This document shows positions 1,780 through 34,806 of a stretch of DNA of 64,000 nucleotides, piece after piece. Both the position numbers and the translations under genes were made by a program. The first letter of the stretch is position 1; every line of letters starts with the position of its first letter. Origin of the DNA: Shigella phage SSE1; sequence record MK639187. The stretch is one strand, 5' to 3'. A model generated the notes under the pieces. That model was not told the DNA's origin. It ran no database searches and saw only the letters and a list, made by a program, of their open reading frames with translations.

Positions 1780-3597
1780 ATGATTAAAAATGAAATTAAG
1801 GTATTGTCAGATGTAGAACATATTAAGAAACGAAGTGGCATGTATATTGGTTCTTCAGCCAAAGAAGCCCACGAGCGTTTTTTGTTTGGTAAATATCAAC
1901 AAGTTGAATATGTTCCTGGTCTGGTTAAATTAATCGATGAGATTATTGACAACTCGGTTGATGAAGCTATTCGTACATCATTTAAGTTTGCAAATAAAAT
2001 TGATGTGCAAATTAAAAATAATCAAGTTTCAGTGGAAGATAACGGACGTGGTATTCCTCAAGGTTTAGTTACCGACCAAACAGGTGAACAAATTCCTGGG
2101 CCTGTAGCAGCCTGGACTATTCCAAAGGCTGGTGGTAACTTTGGCGATGACTCTGAACGCAAGACTGGTGGTATGAACGGCGTCGGGAGTAGTTTAACTA
2201 ATATCTTCTCTACGTTGTTTACAGGCATCACGTCAGATGGCGAAAATGAAATCACTGTTAACTGTTCAAACGGAATGGAAAACAAATCATGGTCTTCTAA
2301 GAAATCTAAAGGTAAAGGCACTAAAGTAATCTTCACTCCTGATTTCACTTCATTTGAAGAGCATAATTTATCTCAAATTTATTTAGATATTACTTTAGAC
2401 CGACTTCAAACATTGGCAGTCGTTTATCCTGACATCAAGTTCACATTTAATGGTAAAAAGGTTGATGGTAATTTTAAACGATTTGCTAAACAATTTGGTG
2501 AAGATAACATCATTCAAGAAAATGATAAAGTCTCTATAGCATTCACAACATCACCAGATGGCTTCCGTCATTTAACTTATGTGAATAACATCCATACTAA
2601 AAATGGTGGTCATCATGTTGAATGCGTAATGGATGATATCTGCGAACATCTTTTGCCAGGTATTAAAAAGAAATATAAGGGTATTGAAGTCACTAAAGCT
2701 CGTGTTAAAGAATGTCTCACAATGTTGATGTTTATTAGAGACATGAGCAATATGCGTTTTGATTCTCAGACTAAAGAACGTTTAACGTCAACGTATGGTG
2801 ATATTCGTAATCATATCCAATTAGATGCTAAGAAAATTGCTCAGGCACTTCTTAAAAACGAAGCCTTGATTATGCCTATTGTTGAAGCAGCATTAGCTCG
2901 TAAATTGGCGGCAGAAAAGGCTGCGGAAACTAAAGCAGCTAAAAAGGCAACTAAAGCTAAGGTTCATAAGCATATTAAAGCTAACCAATGTGGTAAAGAC
3001 GCAGATACGACATTGTTCTTAACAGAAGGTGATTCGGCAATTGGTTATCTCATTGATGTTCGTGACCGTGAACTACACGGCGGATTCCCATTACGTGGTA
3101 AGGTGATGAATAGCTGGGGTATGTCGTATGCTGATATGATGAAGAACAAAGAGCTCTTTGATATCTGTGCTATCACAGGTCTTATTCTTGGTGAAAAGGC
3201 AGAGAATACGAACTATCGTAATATTGCAATTATGACCGATGCCGATCATGATGGTCTTGGAAGTATTTATCCGGCTTTGCTTGCTTTCTTTAGTAATTGG
3301 CCCGAATTGTTCGAACAAGGACGTATTCGCTTTGTTAAAACGCCTGTAATTATTGCACAAATTGGCAAAACTCAAAAATGGTTTTATACTGTAGCTGAGT
3401 ATGAAGAAGTTAAAGATACACTGCCTAAGCATAGTATTCGATACATCAAGGGATTGGGCTCCCTTGAAAAGTCAGAATATCGTGAAATGATTCAGAATCC
3501 TGTGTACGACGTAGTTAAACTTCCTGAAAATTGGAAAGAACTCTTTGAAATGTTGTTGGGTGATGATTCAGAACTTCGTAAAGAATGGATGTCCTAA
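1780..3597 (+). CDS. 39: DNA topoisomerase II large subunit (GyrB-like ATPase), unsplit form
   Basis: 605 aa; N-terminus MIKNEIKVLSDVEHIKKRSGMYIGS with GHKL ATPase motifs and a toprim-like C-terminal region; recalled T2-type gp39 is also 605 aa whereas T4 splits this gene into 39 and 60. Confidence 0.93.
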   Translation: MIKNEIKVLSDVEHIKKRSGMYIGSSAKEAHERFLFGKYQQVEYVPGLVKLIDEIIDNSVDEAIRTSFKFANKIDVQIKNNQVSVEDNGRGIPQGLVTDQTGEQIPGPVAAWTIPKAGGNFGDDSERKTGGMNGVGSSLTNIFSTLFTGITSDGENEITVNCSNGMENKSWSSKKSKGKGTKVIFTPDFTSFEEHNLSQIYLDITLDRLQTLAVVYPDIKFTFNGKKVDGNFKRFAKQFGEDNIIQENDKVSIAFTTSPDGFRHLTYVNNIHTKNGGHHVECVMDDICEHLLPGIKKKYKGIEVTKARVKECLTMLMFIRDMSNMRFDSQTKERLTSTYGDIRNHIQLDAKKIAQALLKNEALIMPIVEAALARKLAAEKAAETKAAKKATKAKVHKHIKANQCGKDADTTLFLTEGDSAIGYLIDVRDRELHGGFPLRGKVMNSWGMSYADMMKNKELFDICAITGLILGEKAENTNYRNIAIMTDADHDGLGSIYPALLAFFSNWPELFEQGRIRFVKTPVIIAQIGKTQKWFYTVAEYEEVKDTLPKHSIRYIKGLGSLEKSEYREMIQNPVYDVVKLPENWKELFEMLLGDDSELRKEWMS

Positions 3598-3639: not shown

Positions 3640-4740
3640 ATGAAAGTTATGTTTATCCCATCTCGTGCAGTCCCATTTAATCCTGACCGTGTACAAGGTG
3701 GCCTTGAAGCAGTACATTTAAATGTGTTGAAATATCTTGTGTCCATCGGTGCTGATATTGATTATATCGGCTTTGATAATGACACGTTTGGTGACTGGAA
3801 AGTTACACACCATCCTGTTGGTCATCTGGCTAAATTCAGTCTAGGTATGAGTTATACTATGGCTCGTAAGATTGTTGAACTAGCCAGCATTAATGAATAC
3901 GATTTCGTTGTTACAATGGAACCGACCAAACTAACGGTCCAAGCAATTAAAGATGCTGGACTCTCTAAAGTTCATAAGAATTTTATGGCTACACCGTTTG
4001 AACCGGTGTCTCGTGGTATTGTTCAAATTTGGGATCAGACTATCCAGATTCACAAGAACGGTGGGAAGAGCTATGCTCCTACTAAAGCATTCCGTGAATT
4101 TGAACGTAAATATTGTCATATGACTTCAGCTCTTACTGACAAAATTGATTATGACTACTGGCGTGAAAATCCATTATTTGAACCTGATGACTACCCGGTT
4201 ATTTGTTTGAATGAAAAACCTGAAGTTCTTCCGGCAACTGAGTTGATTATTAGTGCTCAACGTTATGACACTAAGATGCGTCGCACTGATGTTGCTCTTG
4301 AAGCAATTAAAGCACTAGGCGAAAATGGTATTGGTTATTGTCCAAGCAAATGGGCACCACCAGCTAAATATCCTGTTATTATTGATGCTCCACACAGTGA
4401 AATCATGGAACGTCTTAAAACAGCTAAAGCACTTATTAATACATGCCCTGACACAGGTACGGTAGAGAATAGTTCTATTGAAGCTATCTCTAAAGGTGTC
4501 CCCGTAATCCAGTTAGTTTTTAAGGATTATCCTCATGCGACATTCGAATACGACCCAGATACTGTGCGTGTAGAAATTGATTCCTCTACTCCTAAGAAAG
4601 AAGTAGTTGCGCTTTACACAAAAGCTGTATTAGAATTCACTGACACATACGAAGCTCGAGTTAAACGTGCTGAAGCAGTATGGAAGAAGTATAACCGAGA
4701 TGCAGTTGTTGCGATGTGGGATAAAATCTTCACAGCGTAA
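3640..4740 (+). CDS. GT-B fold glycosyltransferase (GT4-like); candidate DNA hydroxymethylcytosine sugar transferase
   Basis: 366 aa; N-terminal MKVMFIPS...GGLEAV resembles the Rossmann start of GT-B enzymes; C-terminal TGTVENSSIEAISKGVPVI matches the GT4 donor-binding motif; sits between gp39 and rIIA. Confidence 0.6.
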   Translation: MKVMFIPSRAVPFNPDRVQGGLEAVHLNVLKYLVSIGADIDYIGFDNDTFGDWKVTHHPVGHLAKFSLGMSYTMARKIVELASINEYDFVVTMEPTKLTVQAIKDAGLSKVHKNFMATPFEPVSRGIVQIWDQTIQIHKNGGKSYAPTKAFREFERKYCHMTSALTDKIDYDYWRENPLFEPDDYPVICLNEKPEVLPATELIISAQRYDTKMRRTDVALEAIKALGENGIGYCPSKWAPPAKYPVIIDAPHSEIMERLKTAKALINTCPDTGTVENSSIEAISKGVPVIQLVFKDYPHATFEYDPDTVRVEIDSSTPKKEVVALYTKAVLEFTDTYEARVKRAEAVWKKYNRDAVVAMWDKIFTA

Positions 4741-24200: not shown

Positions 24201-25095
24201 GGTCGCCTTCCCATATACGCCATAAACTATTTGCAGCATCAAAAACAAAAAACGCGTCAGAAGAAGTTCTGCCTTCGACGATATGAGTCCCGACTTCGCC
24301 AATAGACGTTGTATCATCAAATGTTTTAATAATCGTATGATACAGTGGGTTTAATTTATCTAAATCAACTAGGCTGATTATATCACCATTGTTAGCATTA
24401 CGTGGAAGTGTAATGTCGATTGGTGCTGCACTAGTAAAACGAAGAACAATAAAATCGTTTGCTTGCGCTTGATATGGTGTAGCAGGTGTAACAGTGATTG
24501 ATTCTTTACCGTAATCAATGATATACATCTGCCACAAACGATTACTAAACACAAACACTAGTTGTGAACGCGGACGCGTCATTAAAACTGTACGAACTTG
24601 TTCGCCTCTAAAGTTTAAAATACTCTGCACAGACGCGTTAATCTGTACTTTAACTGCCCCGGTTCTTCCACCAATATCAGCCAAAACAATAGTGTCACCA
24701 TCAACCGGCGCATTTGGCAACGTGAAAACCATATCATTGCCGGCACCAGTGTTAACCGAAATCGATTCACCTGAAGAAAGTTGATAAGTCCCAGAAGCGA
24801 CAGTTATCCATTGTGCATCAGTACGAACTGCACGCCATTGTAAAAGGTTAAATGCCCCGGAAGGAGACACAATATCATTTATTGCTTGATATAAACGGTT
24901 GTCATAAAGAACAACAAATCCTTTGTTATATCCACGCGTAGAATCATATACTTGAACGGTGTTTTCTTGTACCAGGAAGTCAACGTTTACGCCATCAGTA
25001 CCTACTGTACGGTCGGCTAATGCTACGTTAACAATCTTGTCGCCACCGGCGTCCAGACCGTCTTCGGCTCTGAACTTACGTTTGATGTCGGCCAT
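21220..25095 (-). CDS. 34: long tail fibre proximal subunit gp34
   Basis: 1291 aa; N-terminus MADIKRKFRAEDGLDAGGDKIVNVALADRTVGTDGVNVDFL and repeated ...TATETRRG.AEIATQ... motifs as in T4 gp34 (1289 aa). Confidence 0.93.
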   Translation of the reverse strand: MADIKRKFRAEDGLDAGGDKIVNVALADRTVGTDGVNVDFLVQENTVQVYDSTRGYNKGFVVLYDNRLYQAINDIVSPSGAFNLLQWRAVRTDAQWITVASGTYQLSSGESISVNTGAGNDMVFTLPNAPVDGDTIVLADIGGRTGAVKVQINASVQSILNFRGEQVRTVLMTRPRSQLVFVFSNRLWQMYIIDYGKESITVTPATPYQAQANDFIVLRFTSAAPIDITLPRNANNGDIISLVDLDKLNPLYHTIIKTFDDTTSIGEVGTHIVEGRTSSDAFFVFDAANSLWRIWEGDQKSRLRIIRADSNIRPNEEVLIFGTNNATAETINLTLPTGILTGDTVKISMNYMRKGQTVKIKAAKGDTIASSVALLQFPKRSEYPPDAQWVSVTELEFNGTTSYVPVLELAYVEDTDSDTHYWVVQQNVPTVERVDAGTDATRARLGVIALATQAQANADLENTPAKEVAITPETLANRTATEARRGIAKIATTAQVNQNSTATFVDDTIVTPKKLNERTATETRRGLAEIATQAETDAGLDDTTIITPKKLQARQGSETLSGIVKYVSTTSATPAATRGAAGTNVYNKDTSTLTISPKALDQYKATYAQQGAVILAVDSEVIAGQSQAGYSHAVVTPETLHKKTSTDGRIGLIEIATQAETNAGTDYTRAVTPKTLNDRKATEGLSGIAELATQVEFDTGTDDTRISTPLKIKTHFDSSDRTSVNSDSGLIEEGTLWNHYTLDISKANETQRGTLRVATQAESNAGTLDDVLITPKKLLGTKSTETSEGVIKVATRAETVTGTSANTAVSPKNLKWIVQNEPTWAATMAIRGFVKTSSGSITFVGNDTVGSTQPLESYEKNSYAISPYELNRVLANYLPLKAKAADANLLDGIDSSQFIRRDIAQTVNGSLTLTKQTNLSAPLVSSSTATFGGSVSANSTLTISNTGTATRLIFEKGPQTGTNPAQTMTIRVWGNQFGGGSDTTRSTVFEVGDETSNHFYSQRNKDGNIAFSINGTVMPININASGLMNVNGVATFGRSVTANGEFISKSANAFRAISGDYGFFIRNDAANTYFMLTASGDQTGGFNGLRPLAINNASGQVTIGEGLIIAKGATINSDGLTVNSRIRSQGTKTSDLYTRAPTSDTVGFWSIDINDSATYNQFPGYFKMVEKTNEVSGLPYLERGEEVKSPGTLTQFGNTLDSLYQDWITYPTTPEARTTRWTRTWQKTKNSWSSFVQVFDGGNPPQPSDIGALPSDNATIGNLTIRDFLRIGNVRVIPDPVNKSVKFEWIE

Positions 25096-25125
25096 TCGTT
25101 TTTCCTTTATTGTTTCAATAATACT

Positions 25126-25133
25126 TATTTATA
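25126..25133 (-). promoter_or_regulatory. late promoter TATAAATA for gene 34
   Basis: Exact TATAAATA on the - strand about 30 nt upstream of the gp34 start. Confidence 0.65.
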
Positions 25134-25136
25134 CCA

Positions 25137-25165
25137 GTTTACGCTTTCAAATGAGTGTGTTACTA
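25137..25165 (+). promoter_or_regulatory. early promoter (GTTTAC, TACTAT) for rnh, divergent from the gene 34 late promoter
   Basis: GTTTAC 25137-25142, TACTAT 25160-25165, 17-bp spacing. Confidence 0.5.
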
Positions 25166-25198
25166 TAGACAAGTTGACTAACTGAACAAGAGGTTCAT

Positions 25199-26116
25199 AT
25201 GGATTTAGAAATGATGTTGGATGAAGATTACAAAGAAGGTATTGCACTTGCCGACTTTAGTAACATTGCGTTGGCAGCCGCATTAAACAACTTTGAAGAC
25301 GGTGATAAAATTACTGTTCCAATGGTTCGACATGTAATCTTGAATTCAATTCGTAAAAACGTAGTGATGTTCCGTAAGCAAGGCTATACAAAATTTGTAT
25401 TGTGTATGGATAATGCTACTTCAGGTTATTGGCGACGTGACTTTGCTTACTATTACAAGAAAAATCGTAAAACCGATCGTGAAGCTTCAAAGTGGGATTG
25501 GGAAGGATATTTTACTGCACTCCATCAAGTTGTTGATGAGATTAAGAAATACATGCCATACGTTGTAATGGATATTGACAAGTATGAAGCGGATGACCAT
25601 ATTGGTGTATTAACTAAATATTTGTCATTAGCTGGTCATAAGGTATGTATTGTTGCATCAGATGGTGACTTTACACAATTACACAAATATCCTAACGTTA
25701 AACAGTGGTCGCCACCACAGAAAAAATGGGTTAAAATTAAGAATGGTTCTGCTGAAATTGATTGCATGACTAAAATTCTTAAAGGCGACCGTAAGGACGG
25801 TGTTGCATCTGTTCGAGTTCGTGGTGACTTCTGGTTTACTCGAGTTGAAGGTGAACGAACTCCAAGCATGAAAACATCAATTATTGAAGCAATTGCTAAC
25901 GACCGTTCTCAAGCTGAAGTATTATTAAGTGCAGAAGAATATAAACGGTATCAAGAAAATTTGGTTCTCATTGATTTTGATTATATCCCTGATAATATTG
26001 CTTCAACCATTATAGAGTATTATAACTCGTATAAACAACAACCTAAAGGCAAGATTTATTCATACTTTGTAAAATCGGGTCTTTCTAAATTAACAAGTGT
26101 AATTAACGAATTCTGA
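25199..26116 (+). CDS. rnh: RNase H (5'-3' exonuclease, FEN family)
   Basis: 305 aa, same length as T4 RNase H; position between gene 34 and dsbA. Confidence 0.85.
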   Translation: MDLEMMLDEDYKEGIALADFSNIALAAALNNFEDGDKITVPMVRHVILNSIRKNVVMFRKQGYTKFVLCMDNATSGYWRRDFAYYYKKNRKTDREASKWDWEGYFTALHQVVDEIKKYMPYVVMDIDKYEADDHIGVLTKYLSLAGHKVCIVASDGDFTQLHKYPNVKQWSPPQKKWVKIKNGSAEIDCMTKILKGDRKDGVASVRVRGDFWFTRVEGERTPSMKTSIIEAIANDRSQAEVLLSAEEYKRYQENLVLIDFDYIPDNIASTIIEYYNSYKQQPKGKIYSYFVKSGLSKLTSVINEF

Positions 26117-26123
26117 GGTAAAC

Positions 26124-26393
26124 ATGGCTAAGAAAGAAGCAGTTGAATTTAATCAAGATGTGCATGGTGAAGAACTGGCTAAACTAGTCAAGGAAGCTTC
26201 CGATAACAAACTTAAAATTTCTGGTTATAATGAACTGATTAAAGACATTCGTACTCGTGCTAAAGAAGAGCTTGGCGTTGATGGAAAAATGTTTAATCGT
26301 TTGTTAGCTCTTTATCATAAAGACGCTCGTGACCAATTTGAAGCTGAAAATGAAGAGGTAGTCGAGCTTTATGACACAGTTTTCACTAAGTGA
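26124..26393 (+). CDS. dsbA: double-stranded DNA-binding protein DsbA
   Basis: 89 aa, same length and position as T4 dsbA. Confidence 0.8.
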   Translation: MAKKEAVEFNQDVHGEELAKLVKEASDNKLKISGYNELIKDIRTRAKEELGVDGKMFNRLLALYHKDARDQFEAENEEVVELYDTVFTK

Positions 26394-26709
26394 TATTAAA
26401 CCGGTTGATGAGGCCGGTTTATCTGAACAAGAATTAGCAGTAAAACATGATAAAGATGACATCGCTAAATTGCTTGACCGTCAAGAAAACGGATTCATTA
26501 TCGAATCTATGGTTGAACAATTTGGTATGTCTTATTTAGAAGCAACAACTGCTTTCTTGGAAGAAAATTCTATTCCAGAAACACAATTTGCTAAATTTAT
26601 TCCTACAGGAATTGTTGAAAAAATTACAAGCGAAGCAATTGACGAAAACATGCTTCGCCCATCAGTTGCTCGTGGTGAAAAAACTAATACGTTAGATTTC
26701 TTATTATGA
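26371..26709 (+). CDS. 33: late transcription co-activator gp33
   Basis: 112 aa; MTQFSLSDIKPVDEAGLSEQEL...RQENGFIIESMVEQFGMSYLEATTAFLEENSIPETQFAKF matches recalled T4 gp33. Confidence 0.88.
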   Translation: MTQFSLSDIKPVDEAGLSEQELAVKHDKDDIAKLLDRQENGFIIESMVEQFGMSYLEATTAFLEENSIPETQFAKFIPTGIVEKITSEAIDENMLRPSVARGEKTNTLDFLL

Positions 26710-27389
26710 AATACGTTGTGTATAAAACTACCAATAAAATAAACGGTAAAATTTATATAGGCGTACACAAAAAACATAAAGAGAAAGATTGGTATATTGG
26801 GTCTGGTCGCGCTATATTAGCGGCCAAAGCTAAATACGGGCTAAAAAATTTTTATACTGAAGTTCTTTATGAATATGATAATGACAAGGACGCCTATAAA
26901 AAAGAAGCAGAATTGGTTAATGAAGATTTTGTTTTGCGAACTGATACTTATAACCTGGTTCCAGGTGGTAAAGGTGGCCCTGGTAAAAAACAAAGTGATG
27001 AAGCTAAAAGGGCTATTTCACTTTCTAAAATAGGGAAACCTAGATCTGAAGAGACTAAGGCTAAAGTATCTAAAACCAGATTAGAAAGAAAAATACCATC
27101 CCCTAATAAGGGTAAGAAACTATCTGAAGCTCATAAATTAGCTTTGAGTAAAGTCCGAAAAGGGCGAAAAACGAATAAGCCGATGCCTGATTCAACCAAA
27201 GAAGCTCTTAGAATAGCAAATTCAAAGCCGCATTCTAAAGAAAGAACTATTAAAAAACAAAAACCTATAATTATTGATGGTATAAAATACTCATCATGCA
27301 CAGAAGTTTCAGATGTTTTTAATATTTCTGCATCTCTAGTTACGTATAGACTTAAATCTTCAAAATGGCCTGGATGGAACTATGATTAA
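26706..27389 (+). CDS. GIY-YIG homing endonuclease (Seg-like)
   Basis: 227 aa; N-terminal VVYKTTNKINGKIYIGV (GIY-YIG motif), Lys/Ser-rich NUMOD-like linker, C-terminal helix-turn-helix; overlaps gp33 stop and gp59 start. Confidence 0.8.
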   Translation: MKYVVYKTTNKINGKIYIGVHKKHKEKDWYIGSGRAILAAKAKYGLKNFYTEVLYEYDNDKDAYKKEAELVNEDFVLRTDTYNLVPGGKGGPGKKQSDEAKRAISLSKIGKPRSEETKAKVSKTRLERKIPSPNKGKKLSEAHKLALSKVRKGRKTNKPMPDSTKEALRIANSKPHSKERTIKKQKPIIIDGIKYSSCTEVSDVFNISASLVTYRLKSSKWPGWNYD

Positions 27390-28035
27390 AATACGCATGC
27401 CTCCTGACGGAGAACGTTATATTAACGGTAAATCAGTATATAAACTATACTTGATGTGCAAAAACCACTTTGGTGGTCGGTATGACGTAATCAAATATAA
27501 CTGGTGCATGCGTGTTTCGGATAATGCGTATCAAAAACGCCGAGATAAATATTTCTTTGAAAAACTAGCAGAGAAATATAAATTGAAGGAACTCACCTTG
27601 ATATTCATAAGTAACTTAGTTGCTAACCAAGATGCGTGGATTGGTGAGATATCAGACGCTGATGCATTAGTTTTCTATAGGGAATATATTGGACGTCTCA
27701 AACAAGCCAAGGAGACGTTTGCTGAAGACATACGTAACATCTACTATTTCAGTAAGAAAGTGGAAGTTAGTGCGCTTCAAGAGATATTTGATTATAATAA
27801 TAAAGTTCAGTCGAGCTACATATTTAAATTGCTACAAAGCAATATAATTTCATTTGAAACCTTCTTGTTGTTGGATTCATTCTTGAATATTATAGATAAG
27901 CATGACGAACTTACTGACAATTTAGTCTGGCAAAATTATTCTACCAAATTAAAGGCATATCGAAAAATACTTCAAATCGATGGAAATGCTGCTAAGAAAT
28001 TGTTCATAGAAACAATCAAATCATGTAAGTATTAA
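27382..28035 (+). CDS. 59: gp59 helicase loader
   Basis: 217 aa; MIKIRMPPDGERYINGKSVYKLYLM...YDVIKYNWCMRVSDNAYQKRRDKYFF matches recalled T4 gp59 (217 aa). Confidence 0.9.
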   Translation: MIKIRMPPDGERYINGKSVYKLYLMCKNHFGGRYDVIKYNWCMRVSDNAYQKRRDKYFFEKLAEKYKLKELTLIFISNLVANQDAWIGEISDADALVFYREYIGRLKQAKETFAEDIRNIYYFSKKVEVSALQEIFDYNNKVQSSYIFKLLQSNIISFETFLLLDSFLNIIDKHDELTDNLVWQNYSTKLKAYRKILQIDGNAAKKLFIETIKSCKY

Positions 28036-28064
28036 GCTTTATTTCTTGTGTGTTAAAATTACTT

Positions 28065-28072
28065 TATAAATA
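28065..28072 (+). promoter_or_regulatory. late promoter TATAAATA upstream of gene 32
   Basis: Exact TATAAATA on the + strand about 90 nt upstream of gp32. Confidence 0.5.
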
Positions 28073-28082
28073 AATCATACCA

Positions 28083-28160
28083 GCTACGAGGTATAAGTGT
28101 CGTAGCAACCAACTGTAAATAAATTAAATAATCTAAATAATCTAAATAAAGGTAAATATA
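28083..28160 (+). promoter_or_regulatory. gene 32 translational operator (leader hairpin plus A/U-rich repeats)
   Basis: GCTACG...CGTAGC stem followed by unstructured AAATAAATTAAATAATCTAAATAATCTAAATAAA run ending at the gp32 ATG, as in the T4 gp32 autoregulatory leader. Confidence 0.55.
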
Positions 28161-29063
28161 ATGTTTAAACGTAAATCTACTGCTGACCTCGCTGCTCAAA
28201 TGGCTAAACTGAACGGTAACAAAGGTTTCTCTTCAGAAGATAAAGGCGAATGGAAGCTGAAGCTAGATGCATCAGGTAATGGTCAAGCGGTAATTCGTTT
28301 CTTGCCAGCAAAAACTGATGATGCACTACCATTTGCAATTCTTGTTAACCACGGTTTCAAGAAAAATGGTAAATGGTATATTGAAAATTGCTCTTCTACA
28401 CACGGTGATTACGACTCTTGTCCTGTATGTCAGTACATTAGTAAAAATGACCTGTACAATACCAACAAAACTGAATATTCTCAACTGAAACGTAAAACTT
28501 CTTATTGGGCTAATATTCTGGTTGTTAAAGACCCTCAAGCTCCAGATAATGAAGGTAAAGTATTTAAATATCGTTTCGGTAAAAAGATTTGGGACAAAAT
28601 CAATGCAATGATTGCAGTTGATACCGAAATGGGTGAAACTCCGGTTGATGTTACTTGTCCGTTTGAAGGTGCCAACTTCGTTCTGAAAGCTAAGCAGGTT
28701 TCTGGTTTTAGCAACTATGACGAATCTAAATTCTTGGGTCAATCTGAAATTCCTCGTATTAATGATGAAGCATTCCAGAAAGAACTATATGACCAGATGG
28801 TAGACCTTACCACTTTGACGGCTAAAGACCAGTTCAAATCCTTTGAAAAATTAAATGAATCTTTCGCTAAGGTTCTTGGTACTGCCGCTCTTGGTGGTGC
28901 AGCAGCCGCAGCAGCTTCTGTTGCAGATAAAGTTGCTTCTGACCTTGACGATTTTGATAAAGACATGGAAGCCTTTAGTTCTGCAAAAACTGAAGATGAC
29001 TTCATGAGCTCTACCTCATCCTCTGATGATGGTGACCTCGATGACCTGTTAGCCGGTCTATAA
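28161..29063 (+). CDS. 32: single-stranded DNA-binding protein gp32
   Basis: 300 aa; [36 protein letters not shown]...; zinc site C..H..CPVC; acidic C-terminus; T4 gp32 is 301 aa. Confidence 0.95.
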
Positions 29064-29069
29064 TAAATC

Positions 29070-29091
29070 GGGAGACTTCGGTCTCCCTTTT
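29070..29091 (+). terminator. intrinsic terminator, UUCG tetraloop hairpin
   Basis: GGGAGACTTCGGTCTCCC followed by TTTT. Confidence 0.75.
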
Positions 29092-29118
29092 GAGTATCTG
29101 TAAATTGCCGAAAAAGTT

Positions 29119-29147
29119 GTTTACTTCTTCCCTGGATGTGTTAGTAT
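29119..29147 (+). promoter_or_regulatory. early promoter (GTTTAC, TAGTAT)
   Basis: 17-bp spacing, followed by the CCTATCAA element. Confidence 0.5.
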
Positions 29148-29176
29148 AGACCTATCAACAACATGAGGAAATCAAA

Positions 29177-29581
29177 ATGGAAATCGGAAAATCTTATATC
29201 ATTAACCCTTTATTTAAAGATGACTTTGTTCAAGAAGCACCACACAATAACGCTAAGATGTTAAAATTGATTGAACTCCACGGGCCTAGTTTTGTTGTAA
29301 ACGGAATGGAACCTGATTATGATAGCGATACGTCAAACGTAGTAAGTGTAACTATGGAAGATGGTACTGTATGTTCTGCCGGTGGTGAAATTGAAACTTA
29401 TTTTGAGATTTATCCTGACGAGTTCAAATACTTTATTGAGTACTTTACTGAGGTAACTTTAGAAAAGCCTCAACCTACTAACGAAGGTATACCTTTAGGT
29501 GTAACAAAAATCCATTGTATCGTAGATGAAACCAACGTCGACGAAATCATCAAACTTTTGCAAAAAACTTTTAAAAAGTAG
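29177..29581 (+). CDS. hypothetical protein (frd.3 position)
   Basis: 134-aa ORF with AGGAAA spacer. Confidence 0.5.
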   Translation: MEIGKSYIINPLFKDDFVQEAPHNNAKMLKLIELHGPSFVVNGMEPDYDSDTSNVVSVTMEDGTVCSAGGEIETYFEIYPDEFKYFIEYFTEVTLEKPQPTNEGIPLGVTKIHCIVDETNVDEIIKLLQKTFKK

Positions 29582-30145: not shown

Positions 30146-30725
30146 ATTAGTATTCGCATGTGCTCCGACTAAAACAGTTGATGATAAGCTGGAATATGCT
30201 TTTGGATTAGGTGATGGACTTCCATGGAAGCATATCAAACAAGATATGAGTAACTTTGTTGCTCGCACTAAAAACACTGTAATGGTTATGGGTGCTAAGA
30301 CTTTTGCATCATTACCTCGTCTACTCCAAGACCGTACTCATGTGGTTGTCACTGATATGGCCAGAAAACTGCCTAGGACTAAAACCAACGAACTTGCACG
30401 GTTCTATATCACCCAATCTGAATTTATTACCTTGGTAACAGGTGGTGAAATTAACCTGTTTAGCCCTGCAACTGACGTACCGTTTAAACTTTCTACTGAA
30501 CATGTTGATGTCTCGGTTATTGGTGGTCCTGCTTTATTAAAACAAGCACTGCCTTATGCCGATGAAATCGTGATGACTAAAATCATTAAGAAATGTCGTG
30601 TTAATTCCGATGTTCAACTTGATAAAGATTTCGTCCAAGATATTATGCTTCAACGTTCTATGGTAGAATCTCATTACTACAGAATCGATGAACTCACCGA
30701 AATTACTGAGAGCGTTTATAAATGA
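30138..30725 (+). CDS. frd: dihydrofolate reductase
   Basis: 195 aa from the internal ATG at 30138 (MLKLVFACAPTKTVDD...FGLGDGLPW...VMGAKTF...VIGGPALL); DHFR motifs; T4 frd is 193 aa. Confidence 0.88.
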   Translation: MLKLVFACAPTKTVDDKLEYAFGLGDGLPWKHIKQDMSNFVARTKNTVMVMGAKTFASLPRLLQDRTHVVVTDMARKLPRTKTNELARFYITQSEFITLVTGGEINLFSPATDVPFKLSTEHVDVSVIGGPALLKQALPYADEIVMTKIIKKCRVNSDVQLDKDFVQDIMLQRSMVESHYYRIDELTEITESVYK

Positions 30726-31582
30726 AACAATACCAATACCTGATTAAAGATATCTTAGAAAATGGCTACGAAACAGACGACCGTACAGGTACAGGCACTA
30801 TTGCCCTGTTCGGAACTAAATTGCGATGGGATCTGACTAAAGGATTCCCTGCGGTAACAACTAAGAAATTAGCATGGAAAGCTTGTATTGCCGAGTTACT
30901 GTGGTTCATGTCTGGTTCTACCAATGTTAATGATTTACGTATTCGTACTCATGGTAGTCTTATTCAAGGTAAAACTATTTGGGACGACAACTATGAAAAT
31001 CAGGCAAAAGACCTTGGATATCATAGCGGCGAACTTGGTCCTATTTATGGTAAGCAATGGCGTGATTTTGGCGGTGTAGACCAATTGGTCAAAACTATCG
31101 ACCGCATTAAAGCTCTTCCTAATGATCGTCGTCAAATAGTTTCTGCATGGAACCCAGCCGAAATTGACCAAATGGCTCTTCCTCCTTGTCATATGTTCTA
31201 TCAATTTAATGTGCGTAATGGGCATCTTGATTTACAATGGTATCAACGCAGTGTAGATGTTTTCTTGGGTCTGCCGTTCAACATTGCCTCGTACGCTGCC
31301 TTGACGCATATTGTAGCGAAGATGTGTAACCTTATCCCAGGTGATTTAGTGTTCTCAGGCGGCAACACGCATATCTACAGCAATCATGTAGAACAATGCA
31401 AAGAAGTTCTTCGTCGTGAACCTAAAGAGTTATGTTCTCTTGAAATTAATTGGCCTAGTAATTTTGAGAATTGGCCTACAAAAATCCAAATGGACTGGGT
31501 TACTGGAACGATGACACATTCTGATTTCATTCTTAAAAATTACGAATCACATCCAGCTATCAAAGCTAAAATGGCGGTATAA
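30722..31582 (+). CDS. td: thymidylate synthase, uninterrupted
   Basis: 286 aa continuous ORF with catalytic ...ALPPCHMFYQF... motif; no intron interruption. Confidence 0.93.
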   Translation: MKQYQYLIKDILENGYETDDRTGTGTIALFGTKLRWDLTKGFPAVTTKKLAWKACIAELLWFMSGSTNVNDLRIRTHGSLIQGKTIWDDNYENQAKDLGYHSGELGPIYGKQWRDFGGVDQLVKTIDRIKALPNDRRQIVSAWNPAEIDQMALPPCHMFYQFNVRNGHLDLQWYQRSVDVFLGLPFNIASYAALTHIVAKMCNLIPGDLVFSGGNTHIYSNHVEQCKEVLRREPKELCSLEINWPSNFENWPTKIQMDWVTGTMTHSDFILKNYESHPAIKAKMAV

Positions 31583-31890: not shown

Positions 31891-31913
31891 GATACTACAA
31901 AGTGGATTATATT

Positions 31914-32549
31914 ATGGATTATTTAAAAATATATAAAAACTTGGTAAATAAAGAAAGAAATTTTGAAGATATAGATGGTGAATGGCATCATATAATCCCA
32001 AAATGTTTAGGTGGCACCGATGAGTCATACAATCTAGTTAAATTAACATATTCAGAACATTATTTGGCTCATCTTCTTTTATTAAAAATATATCCGAACA
32101 ATTTAGGTTTAGCAACCGCGGTTAATTTAATGAGTTCTAGAAATAATAAAGAATTTGGATGGGCTAGAGCAAAAATGGTTGATTTGCTTAAAGGGCGAAA
32201 ATTAGACCAAAAAACAAAAGATAAAATATCTCGTTCCAAACTAGGACATGTTAAATCTGAAGAGACTAAAGAAAAGATACGAAATTCTTTATTAGGTAAA
32301 AAACGTGGACAATACAATATAAAAATTAAATCAAAAATTTCTAAAGGAGTCCCATTAAAAGAATCAACTAAGCAAGCTATTTCTAATGCTATGATAGGAG
32401 CTAAGAATCCATTTGCAAAGAAAGTAATTATAAACGACGTAATATATGATACATTAAATGAAGCGTCAATAGCTTTATCTATGAGCACCCAAACGGTTAG
32501 ACGCCGTCTAAAATCATCAAATTATCCAACATGGAATTATTATGTATAA
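31914..32549 (+). CDS. HNH homing endonuclease (MobE-like, free-standing)
   Basis: About 211 aa from the ATG at 31914; EWHHIIPKCLGGTDESYNLVKLTYSEHYLAH (HNH motif) plus NUMOD-like repeats and C-terminal helix-turn-helix; stop overlaps the nrdA start. Confidence 0.75.
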   Translation: MDYLKIYKNLVNKERNFEDIDGEWHHIIPKCLGGTDESYNLVKLTYSEHYLAHLLLLKIYPNNLGLATAVNLMSSRNNKEFGWARAKMVDLLKGRKLDQKTKDKISRSKLGHVKSEETKEKIRNSLLGKKRGQYNIKIKSKISKGVPLKESTKQAISNAMIGAKNPFAKKVIINDVIYDTLNEASIALSMSTQTVRRRLKSSNYPTWNYYV

Positions 32550-34806
32550 TTTTAAAGTAGTGAAAAATTCAGGTGTATCCCAAAATTTTGATGCACAGAA
32601 AATTATTCAAGTATTAACTTGGCAATGTGAAGGAACACAAATCGACCCATATGAATTGTATGAAGAAATTAAGACCCATCTTGTCGATGGGATGAGCACC
32701 AAAGATATTCAGAAGATTTGTATTAAAGTTGCAGCTAACTCGATTTCTGTCGAAGAACCTGATTATCAATATGTCGCCGCTAAAGGATTAATGTTTGCAC
32801 TTCGTAAAGATGTATATGGACAGTTTGAACCGCCTGCTTTTATCGACCATATTTCTTATTGTGTTAATGAAGGCAAATACGATCCCGAGTTGTTGTCTAG
32901 ATATTCTGCAGAAGAAATCATTTATCTTGATTCTCAGATTAAACACGAGCGAGATTTTGACCTGACTTATGCTGGTGCTATGCAGCTTAAAGAAAAATAC
33001 TTGGTTAAAGATAAAACAACTGGTAAGATTTATGAAACTCCCCAGTTTGCTATCATGGCTATTGGTATGGCCTTACATCAAGACGAAACTCATGACCGTT
33101 TGAAACATATTATTCGTTTTTATGATGCCGTTTCTACTCATCAAGTTTCATTGCCTACTCCAATTATGGCAGGTGCTCGTACTCCGACTCGCCAGTTCTC
33201 TAGTTGTGTAGTTATTGAAGCCGGTGATTCGTTAAAATCTATTAACAAAACTTCAGCATCAATTATTGAATATATTTCTAAACGAGCTGGTATCGGTATC
33301 AACGTTGGCATGCTTCGTGCAGAAGGTTCTAAGATCGGTATGGGTGAAGTTCGACATACAGGTGTTATTCCATTCTGGAAACATTTCCAAACTGCAGTAA
33401 AATCTTGTTCTCAAGGTGGTATTCGTGGTGGTGCTGCTACAGCGTATTATCCGATGTGGCACTTAGAAGTAGAGAACCTATTAGTTCTGAAAAATAACAA
33501 AGGCGTGGATGAAAACCGTATTCGACATATGGACTACGGAATTCAGATTAATGACCTTATGATGGAACGCCTTGGTAAAAATGATTATATTACTTTATTT
33601 AGCCCTCACGAAATGTCAGGCGAACTATACTACTCGTTCTTTGAAGATCAAGATAAATTCCGTGAGCTTTATGAGAAAGCTGAAAAAGACCCAACAATCA
33701 GAAAGAAAAGAATCAAAGCACTAGAACTCTTTGAATTGTTCATGACTGAACGTTCTGGCACTGCTCGAATTTATCCGCAGTTTGTTGATAACACGAATAA
33801 CTACACTCCATTTATTCGTGAAAAAGCTCCAATTCGTCAAAGTAACTTATGTTGTGAAATCGCTATTCCAACTAATGATGTGAATGGACCTGACGCTGAA
33901 ATCGGTTTATGCACATTATCTGCTTTTGTATTAGATAAATTTGATTGGCAAGACCAAGATAAAATTAATGAACTTGCTGAAGTACAAGTACGTGCACTTG
34001 ATAACCTGTTAGACTATCAAGATTATCCGGTTCCAGAAGCTTTAAAAGCTAAAAAGCGTCGAAACCTCGGTGTCGGTGTGACGAACTATGCTGCATGGTT
34101 AGCTTCTAACTTTGCTTCATATGAAGACGCTAACGATTTGACTCATGAATTGTTTGAGAGATTGCAATATGGCCTTATCAAAGCTTCAATCAAACTCGCC
34201 AAAGAAAAAGGACCTTGTGAGTATTATTCAGACACTAAATGGTCTAGAGGCGAATTACCTATCGACTGGTACAATAAAAAGATTGACCAAATCGCAGCCC
34301 CGAACTACGTCTGTGACTGGGAAGAACTTCGAGCTGAACTCAAAGAACATGGAATTCGTAACTCAACGTTGTCTGCACTCATGCCTTGTGAGTCAAGCAG
34401 TCAAGTATCGAACTCTACAAACGGGATTGAGCCTCCGCGCGGTCCAGTAAGTATTAAAGAATCTAAAGAAGGCAACTTCCGACAGGTTGTTCCTAATATC
34501 GAACATAACATGAGTCTTTACGACTACGCGTGGAAACTTGCTAAGAAAGGTAATAAACCTTATTTGACCCAAGTTGCTATCATGTTGAAATGGGTGTGCC
34601 AATCTGCTTCTGCTAATACTTACTATGACCCTGCAGTATTTGAGAAAGGTAAAGTGCCAATGTCAGTAATGCTTGACGATCTGCTTTACTTCTGGTACTT
34701 TGGCGGAAAAAACCTCTACTATCATAACACTCGTGATGGGTCGGGTACAGATGACTATGAATTAGAAACACCTAAAGCTGAAGATTGTTCTGCTTGTAAG
34801 CTTTAA
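32542..34806 (+). CDS. nrdA: ribonucleotide reductase large subunit
   Basis: 754 aa, same length as T4 NrdA; class Ia motifs ...NLCCEIAIPT... and C-terminal CSACKL. Confidence 0.95.
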   Translation: MYNFKVVKNSGVSQNFDAQKIIQVLTWQCEGTQIDPYELYEEIKTHLVDGMSTKDIQKICIKVAANSISVEEPDYQYVAAKGLMFALRKDVYGQFEPPAFIDHISYCVNEGKYDPELLSRYSAEEIIYLDSQIKHERDFDLTYAGAMQLKEKYLVKDKTTGKIYETPQFAIMAIGMALHQDETHDRLKHIIRFYDAVSTHQVSLPTPIMAGARTPTRQFSSCVVIEAGDSLKSINKTSASIIEYISKRAGIGINVGMLRAEGSKIGMGEVRHTGVIPFWKHFQTAVKSCSQGGIRGGAATAYYPMWHLEVENLLVLKNNKGVDENRIRHMDYGIQINDLMMERLGKNDYITLFSPHEMSGELYYSFFEDQDKFRELYEKAEKDPTIRKKRIKALELFELFMTERSGTARIYPQFVDNTNNYTPFIREKAPIRQSNLCCEIAIPTNDVNGPDAEIGLCTLSAFVLDKFDWQDQDKINELAEVQVRALDNLLDYQDYPVPEALKAKKRRNLGVGVTNYAAWLASNFASYEDANDLTHELFERLQYGLIKASIKLAKEKGPCEYYSDTKWSRGELPIDWYNKKIDQIAAPNYVCDWEELRAELKEHGIRNSTLSALMPCESSSQVSNSTNGIEPPRGPVSIKESKEGNFRQVVPNIEHNMSLYDYAWKLAKKGNKPYLTQVAIMLKWVCQSASANTYYDPAVFEKGKVPMSVMLDDLLYFWYFGGKNLYYHNTRDGSGTDDYELETPKAEDCSACKL

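Follow-up and report, generated by a model that had tools for sequence, protein, structure and literature searches.

A free-standing Seg-type GIY-YIG gene at the 33-59 junction of Shigella phage SSE1 and its predicted target in gene 59

Homing endonuclease genes of T4-like phages have been described as promoter-less cassettes in the cases of segC, segF, segG and the mob genes (PMC2988022), and such Seg cassettes have targets in adjacent genes, as with segG, which lies at the 32/59 boundary and targets gene 32, and segF, which targets gene 56 (PMC2988022). T4 SegG cleaves gene 32 of T2, and this cleavage is accompanied by marker exclusion and by co-conversion from a distant site (Liu et al. 2003, as listed in PMC2988022). 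SegD reportedly does not home (PMC2988022; title of Sokolov et al. 2018), and the title of the latter paper names it an endonuclease. Here we describe a gene of this kind, which we call seg, in a 64,000-nucleotide (nt) stretch of Shigella phage SSE1 (MK639187; hereafter the window, to whose positions all coordinates refer unless another record is named). The gene occupies 26706..27389 (+), between gene 33 and the helicase-loader gene 59. In T4 (NC_000866) the two genes are contiguous, as the initial annotation of the window had stated: gene 33 (149193-149531) shares 4 nt with gene 59 (148543-149196), and no insert separates them. Genes 33 and 59 likewise abut in most T4-like phages. We consider it probable that seg encodes a free-standing Seg-type GIY-YIG homing endonuclease that cuts and co-converts gene 59; the identity of its product as a homing endonuclease is the part of this explanation in which we have high confidence.

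The seg cassette and its empty sites

The seg open reading frame (ORF) starts with ATG and encodes 227 amino acids (aa). Its start lies in the context ...TTATT-ATGA-AATAC, in which the TGA of the ATGA at 26706-26709 is the stop codon of gene 33 (26371..26709, +; late-transcription co-activator, Pfam Trans_coact 3.5e-26). Its end lies in the context ...AACT-ATGATTAA-AATA, in which the ATG is the start of gene 59 (27382..28035, +; T4_Gp59_N 1.9e-49, T4_Gp59_C 1.1e-44) and the TAA is the stop codon of seg, which thus falls within the first 8 nt of gene 59.

Megablast of positions 26000-28200 against 50,697 phage records returned 170 records, 152 of which, at 95-99% identity, represent the genus Mosigvirus. 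Of these ~152 Mosigvirus records, 28 covered the whole query and are filled at the junction, whereas ~124 covered 70% of it in two pieces, the flanking sequences, with the ORF missing. When filled alleles were aligned with empty ones, the empty site in Mosigvirus proved to be exactly the T4-like ATGA overlap of genes 33 and 59, and the insert measured 676 bp between the repeats that flank it. The right copy of this direct repeat, ATGATTAAA, spans 27382..27390 (+) and consists of the first three codons of gene 59, and the left copy, at 26706-26711 (+), is degenerate in the window phage, where it reads ATG-AAA and has lost the ATT codon. All six of the orthologs inspected in other lineages begin ATGATTAA(A/G), which equals the first 8-9 nt of gene 59, and a direct repeat of the three codons that open gene 59 therefore bounds the cassette. 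In the Mosigvirus copy the second codon has since disappeared (MKY, compared with MIKY in the other orthologs). Read against the empty site, the filled junction shows the endonuclease gene to have taken over the original start of gene 59, which overlaps the gene 33 stop, and to have supplied a new ATGATTAA start for gene 59.

The ratio of nonsynonymous to synonymous polymorphism (pN/pS) was 0.106, at a pS of 0.105, among 11 intact copies of seg, a figure comparable to those of gene 59 (0.057), gene 33 (0.096) and rnh (0.031). Judged from these values, seg is kept by purifying selection, and its age matches the diversity of its flanks. One of the 12 copies inspected, that of Escherichia phage AV116, is frameshifted by a 1-nt insertion at the window-equivalent position 27012 and is either a decaying gene or the product of a sequencing error. 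In this copy (OR352946; 3207..3891 of the extracted locus, L101) GGG-CT has become GGTCCT, with stops from codon 108, and the GenBank entry annotates only the 3' part of seg, as a 'hypothetical protein'. From its pattern of presence and absence, we conclude that seg is mobile, or was so recently.

The window copy can also be placed among its closest relatives. The Seg protein of the window is identical to those of PaulHMueller (BASEL Bas45, MZ501098.1) and vB_VIPECOMC06, and the 7 kb around seg is only 95.7-96.9% identical to either phage; the window therefore comes from a different, mosaic Mosigvirus. The records of PaulHMueller and F2 are filed as Tequatrovirus, and their seg region is nonetheless Mosigvirus-like.

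Relatives of the gene occupy the same position outside Mosigvirus. In a large protein database, full-length relatives at 46-58% identity form a tight group, and all seven of the orthologous loci examined from this range lie at the 33-59 junction with the same 4-nt and 8-nt overlaps. The orthologs with examined context include IME540 (Dhakavirus), one IMG/VR locus (L016), P0003, P0006, P0010 (Serratia phage vB_SspM_LC53) and P0013. The same flanking repeat as in the Mosigvirus copy was found in the 33-59 orthologs of other Tevenvirinae (Dhakavirus IME540, AnYang and LQ5, Serratia vB_SspM_LC53, and metagenomic contigs), and short forms of the ortholog differ from the window Seg in lacking the fourth NUMOD3 repeat described below. 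Within Dhakavirus, the site is filled in 4 of ~48 records, representing 3 phages. A scan of IMG/VR with gp59 yielded 21 T4-like loci; the junction is filled in one of them (L016), and in 19 others genes 33 and 59 abut. When IMG/VR was scanned with the Seg protein itself, only distant relatives at <=44% identity were recovered and no copy of the window gene was among them. Taken by its sequence and position, seg belongs to a lineage specific to the 33-59 junction of T4-like phages (Tevenvirinae).

These comparisons bear out the initial annotation, which had read 26706-27389 as a free-standing GIY-YIG ORF wedged between genes 33 and 59 and overlapping the stop of the one and the start of the other. 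Both neighbours are intact, and no intron is present, as judged by the lack of any Rfam match in 25000-29500. Its description of an 'established insertion' agrees with the synonymous diversity of the copies (pS 0.105), which resembles that of genes on either side, and with the orthologs at the same junction in other genera. The comparison of the junction across relatives that it had proposed revealed that the ORF is not universal, with a precise empty site in ~124 of the ~152 Mosigvirus records.

Substitutions in gene 59 associated with seg

We aligned the region from rnh through gene 32 in 12 filled genomes, the window included, and 12 empty Mosigvirus genomes. Only 9 of the 382 variable columns outside the insert differed by >=0.5 in allele frequency between filled and empty genomes, and all nine of these linked single-nucleotide polymorphisms (SNPs) fell at 27408-27473, which corresponds to nt 27-92 of gene 59, with none in gene 33 or gene 32. 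The initial annotation had suggested that the neighbouring 33/59/32 sequences might carry a cleavage-resistant variant, and this proposal is supported for gene 59 by the linked SNPs, and not for gene 33 or gene 32, where none was linked. At nt 60 of gene 59, T was present in 12/12 filled genomes and C in 11/12 empty ones, and the carrier bases at nt 82, 84, 91 and 92 were present in 12/12 filled and 2/12 empty genomes. The changes at nt 82-92 convert gp59 Q28/N31 to N28/G31, an allele whose distribution between filled and empty genomes gave a Fisher p of 6.7e-5, a value not corrected for relatedness. At the next common SNPs (27561 on one side, 26676 and 26508 on the other) the association with seg was gone, so that linkage decays by ~180 bp; on the gene 33 side, the final ~130 bp of that gene hardly vary and are thus little informative. 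The SNPs at nt 27, 48 and 54, although nearer to the insert, were less tightly linked than those at nt 60-92. N31 is found in T4 and most lineages, and G31 was seen solely in the carrier allele among the T4-like lineages examined.

A census of the two alleles was made with 45-nt probes, in which a few of the 28 filled records were not individually scored. The carrier-type allele, GTATATAAA...AAAAACCACTTTGGTGG (gp59 N28/G31), was present in 58 records and the common endonuclease-less allele, GTATACAAA...AAACAACATTTTAATGG (gp59 Q28/N31), in 92-96; both lie within 27436..27476 (+). The filled copies that were checked comprised the 12 genomes of the alignment, four further metagenomic copies and several rows of the census; all of them were carrier-type, and none had the Q28/N31 allele. 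The carrier allele has two sub-haplotypes, each of which is found both with seg and without it.

Dhakavirus offered a second, independent comparison, in which the carriers IME540 and AnYang were set against three empty relatives. Within nt 57-78 of gene 59 the carriers are distinguished by 9 substitutions, which include the change M25Q, and they differ further at nt 15 and nt 33; elsewhere in gene 59, and in gene 33, no carrier-linked difference was found. The same ~40 bp of gene 59 (codons 19-32) is therefore marked by both endonuclease lineages, which are 56% identical to each other, as would be expected if the enzyme recognises and cuts this stretch and the carrier needs a resistant version of it. 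The marked stretch encodes a conserved GKSVYKLYLM.K.HF.G block and begins ~55 bp downstream of the insertion point, and its 36-bp span matches the size of a bipartite site of the I-TevI type. No CNNNG motif, as in I-TevI cleavage, was seen by eye in the predicted site. From the association scan, the census and the Dhakavirus cluster together, we place the predicted recognition and immunity region at gene 59 nt 55-95 (codons 19-32; 27436..27476, +), and we lean, if by a modest degree, toward ~nt 55-95 of gene 59 in endonuclease-less phages as the target of Seg.

The stretch of highest variability in the region is a separate one: the 59-32 spacer at 28100..28160 has 41 variable columns per 100 bp and several indels among Mosigvirus genomes that are otherwise 96-99% identical, and this variation is unrelated to the presence of seg.

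The Seg protein, its expression and its proposed action

Comparison with I-TevI by fold indicated that the Seg protein has an N-terminal alpha/beta catalytic fold of the GIY-YIG type, and Pfam matches and a structure model placed C-terminal DNA-binding modules (NUMOD repeats and a helix-turn-helix, HTH) after it. The catalytic domain comprises residues 1-90 (26706..26975, +) and includes the GKIYIGV motif at residues 14-20. Residues Y6, Y17, G19, Y30, G32, F49, E67 and N83, a set that covers both tyrosines, the Glu and the Asn of the GIY-YIG site, are unchanged across 50 homologs, and T4 SegD has the same motif set. The linker, residues ~93-175 (26982..27230, +), contains four NUMOD3-like helical repeats, recognized from the Pfam NUMOD3 match (4e-4; 20.7 bits, just above the cut-off of 20.4) and from helices 98-108, 115-127, 141-153 and 162-173 of an AlphaFold2 model, which was built with 50 homologs in the alignment and has a mean predicted local distance difference test score of 91.1. 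An HTH DNA-binding domain of the I-TevI type occupies residues 183-226 (27252..27383, +; Pfam I-TevI_DNA-bd 5.7e-11). The match to Pfam SegE_GIY-YIG (9e-4, 19.9 bits) fell under the cut-off of 25, and PHROG 314 'homing endonuclease' matched over the full length at 4.3e-55. A single-sequence phmmer search against the PDB returned matches to the HTH only; a profile search reached the I-TevI catalytic domain weakly (E 0.03), and the resemblance to that domain came from the fold comparison. With 642 homologs at E<=1e-5 in the large protein database, a confident model and a low pN/pS, the reality of the seg ORF is far beyond chance. The Seg-like assignment made at the outset from the GKIYIGV motif, a NUMOD-like linker and a C-terminal HTH was thus confirmed by the ORF list, Pfam, the model and the fold comparison. 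Because the fold, the DNA-binding modules, the free-standing location and the polymorphism are all present, we assign seg to the homing endonuclease genes as a kind of element, one that would constitute a mobile cassette at 26706..27389 (+).

No promoter was recognized for seg itself: the T4 late promoter TATAAATA was absent both within and before the gene, the nearest on the + strand being at 28065, in the 59-32 spacer before gene 32, and a pattern scan found no MotA-box/-10 motif inside seg on the + strand. The same scan found a middle-promoter-like motif (MotA box GCTTCA with -10 TATTAT) at 26000..26023 (+), upstream of dsbA, and this motif is likely to be the source of a dsbA-33-seg-59 transcript. 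Further MotA-box/-10 motifs occur at 27774 and 28036 (28036-28059, in the 59-32 spacer), before gene 32, and the window as a whole has 46 such motifs where 18.6 were expected, 2.5-fold over shuffles. Matches to a sigma-70-like promoter were not used, as their number (24, against a shuffle expectation of 15.8 +/- 4.3) was not clearly above chance. There is no Shine-Dalgarno sequence before the Seg ATG, and RNA hairpins that might hide the start of Seg or of gene 59 were not found, the folds there being no better than those of shuffles (z -1.0 and +0.6). In these respects seg looks like the promoter-less cassettes segC, segF, segG and the mob genes.

The other genes around 33-seg-59 were identified by strong Pfam matches: rnh at 25199..26116 (+; T4 RNaseH_C 9.1e-60) and dsbA at 26124..26393 (+; Phage_DsbA 3.3e-37) upstream, and gene 32 at 28161..29063 (+; gp32 9.8e-61) downstream of a 59-32 spacer that in the window measures 125 bp and contains no SegG. 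A second candidate Seg/I-TevI-like endonuclease, a 215-aa ORF at 31902..32549 (+), lies ~4.5 kb downstream of seg between an ORF in the td position (30722..31582) and a 754-aa ORF in the nrdA position (32542..34806). It has a C-terminal I-TevI_DNA-bd match (3.1e-6) and a GTG start as listed, and its real start is possibly further in.

We propose that seg would be read from the dsbA-33-59 message, with translation of Seg coupled to that of gene 33, and translation of gene 59 coupled in turn to that of Seg. In a mixed infection, Seg would bind and cut gene 59 of an endonuclease-less phage at ~nt 55-95, downstream of its own insertion point, and the break would be repaired from the carrier genome, so that seg and the first ~90 bp of gene 59 would be copied together. 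The outcome would be the kind of co-conversion and local marker exclusion that T4 SegF and SegG are described as causing, and the carrier's own gene 59 would be spared through its substitutions at nt 60, 82, 84, 91 and 92 (gp59 Q28N, N31G). The population data fit a short, one-sided tract that runs from the insert to gene 59 nt ~92.

Several points weigh against this explanation. GenBank/RefSeq duplicates and shared ancestry inflate all of the record counts, and ~30 empty records (13 of which are clones of one phage) also have the carrier-type allele. The Mosigvirus and Dhakavirus clusters are adjacent, with overlapping spans, but have no substituted position in common. As the linked SNPs lie 26-92 bp from the insert, linkage would be expected even without selection, and the three haplotypes seen (carrier allele plus seg, carrier allele alone, other allele always alone) are also what one insertion into an already existing allele would give. 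It is possible, if rather unlikely, that Seg is an active homing endonuclease whose real site lies elsewhere, for example across the insert-split 33-59 junction or in gene 33 or gene 32, and that the cluster at gene 59 nt 55-95 is hitch-hiking donor DNA or linked polymorphism. The insert does split the ATGATTAA junction, the way in which intron-encoded enzymes like I-TevI gain immunity, a site in the almost invariant end of gene 33 would give no signal, and linkage decays only by ~180 bp; carrier-type alleles are, moreover, common without seg. Hitch-hiking accounts less well for the dense clusters that two lineages only 56% identical each have in the same ~40 bp, for the amino-acid changes that these clusters include in a protein otherwise 98-99% conserved, and for the tighter linkage of nt 60-92 than of nt 27, 48 and 54, which are closer to the insert. 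Nor would it be expected that the carrier sub-haplotypes occur both with and without seg and yet the other allele is in no filled genome, and for those free-standing T4 Seg enzymes that have been characterised, the listed targets lie in a neighbouring gene and not at the insertion junction (PMC2988022).

The catalytic competence of Seg was weighed in the same way. No residue aligned with the essential Arg27 of I-TevI, that segment being deleted in the profile alignment of the Seg subfamily. This absence, together with the sub-threshold SegE_GIY-YIG score, would suit a passenger or a domesticated DNA-binding protein that is no longer a nuclease and is kept for translational coupling of gene 59 or for regulation of 33-59-32 (as an I-TevI-like autorepressor), and synthesis of gp59 may indeed need reading through seg, as the gene 59 start overlaps the Seg stop. 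We nevertheless think such a loss of nuclease function very unlikely: all 50 homologs retain Y6, Y17, E67 and N83, the pN/pS of 0.11 applies to the whole ORF and not just to its 3' end, the patchy presence and precise empty sites in two genera are the pattern of an active mobile element, and the frameshifted AV116 copy shows that the phage tolerates loss of the gene. The annotations of WFbE185 and 348Ecol098PP name a 'group I intron endonuclease', and both the sequence and the fold of Seg resemble those of the intron-encoded I-TevI. The ORF lies, however, between two complete genes that simply abut in empty sites, and no Rfam family, group I introns included, matched within 25000-29500 even at E<=1; we accordingly rejected a group I intron ORF, give this origin practically no credence, and regard the label in those GenBank records as wrong. 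A homing endonuclease directed at gene 59 remains our preferred explanation.

Relation to described Seg endonucleases

In the Dhakavirus phages IME540 and AnYang, gene 59 is bracketed by two unrelated endonuclease genes, the 33-59 Seg and an ortholog of SegG, the latter being a 59-32 ORF 58% identical to T4 SegG. The SegG ortholog occupies 3845..4462 in the IME540 locus (L004), 2697..3314 in that of AnYang (L120), and ~2000..2635 in those of LHE83 and MX01 (L121 and L122); it has no counterpart in JS98 (L123), so it is polymorphic within Dhakavirus. The helicase-loader gene thus has two unrelated homing-endonuclease insertion sites on its flanks, and a single phage can have an endonuclease gene at each. 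One could imagine, as a conjecture that we consider quite unlikely, that gene 59 is a shuttled cassette in which this two-endonuclease bracket moves the gene, or its 5' end, between Tevenvirinae genera and drives adaptive replacement of gp59, with translation of gene 59 dependent on seg through the ATGATTAA coupling. If this were true, the shuttled 5' end would carry the Q28N/N31G or M25Q changes, and an endonuclease would drive adaptive change in an essential replication protein, beyond neutral immunity changes.

The identification of seg as a homing endonuclease gene is not itself new, as GenBank already labels the 33-59 gene 'homing endonuclease', 'Seg-like' or, in Shf125875, 'SegH'; our literature searches for a 33/59 endonuclease found no paper describing or testing the 33-59 Seg protein. 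What this analysis adds is the junction-specific lineage across genera, previously undescribed among T-even Seg endonucleases, the anatomy of the flanking repeat, and a prediction of target and immunity determinant that comes down to five nucleotides in gene 59. The proposed action of Seg would also explain a local mosaic, gp59 N28/G31, that might otherwise be read as a puzzling protein polymorphism in therapeutic and BASEL-collection coliphages, and, once characterised, an enzyme whose ~40-bp site falls within a conserved replication gene could serve marker exclusion or phage engineering.

None of the named T4 Seg proteins is an ortholog of the 33-59 Seg. Among its T4 paralogs the nearest is SegD, encoded between genes 23 and 24, with 33-40% identity over nearly the full length, and SegH (in the nrd region of T6, RB3 and U5) is 33-34% identical over a similar extent; both lie at genomic junctions different from that of seg, which sets them apart as non-orthologs. 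SegD and the 33-59 Seg have in common the pattern GKIYIG.H...Y.GSG...KKYG..NF...E...YN, NUMOD3 repeats and a C-terminal HTH, whereas SegD is antisense to its neighbours and seg is co-oriented with its own and polymorphic. I-TevI, the endonuclease of the T4 td intron, differs in other ways: it is intron-encoded, its linker has a zinc finger where that of Seg consists of NUMOD3 repeats, its Arg27/His31 segment is missing from the alignment with Seg, and identity in the aligned catalytic core is 23%. Orthology with SegG was considered and rejected, as the two proteins have no detectable similarity (BLASTP E 9.8) and the junctions differ (33-59 and not 59-32).

In function, and by analogy, the closest parallel to the 33-59 Seg would nonetheless be SegG, which is found in the same neighbourhood, on the other side of gene 59. 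Both are free-standing promoter-less cassettes that overlap their neighbours and have a target, in the case of the 33-59 Seg a predicted one, in an adjacent essential replication gene, which is gene 32 for SegG and would be gene 59 for the 33-59 Seg. The SegG insert is said to lie 332 bp from its cleavage site, and the ~55-95 bp predicted for the 33-59 Seg is shorter. This locus leaves the concepts unchanged and should bring no surprise for specialists. Its biology matches SegF, SegG and SegE, and the 33-59 Seg appears to be of the same functional kind as these T4 enzymes, one of intronless homing with local co-conversion.

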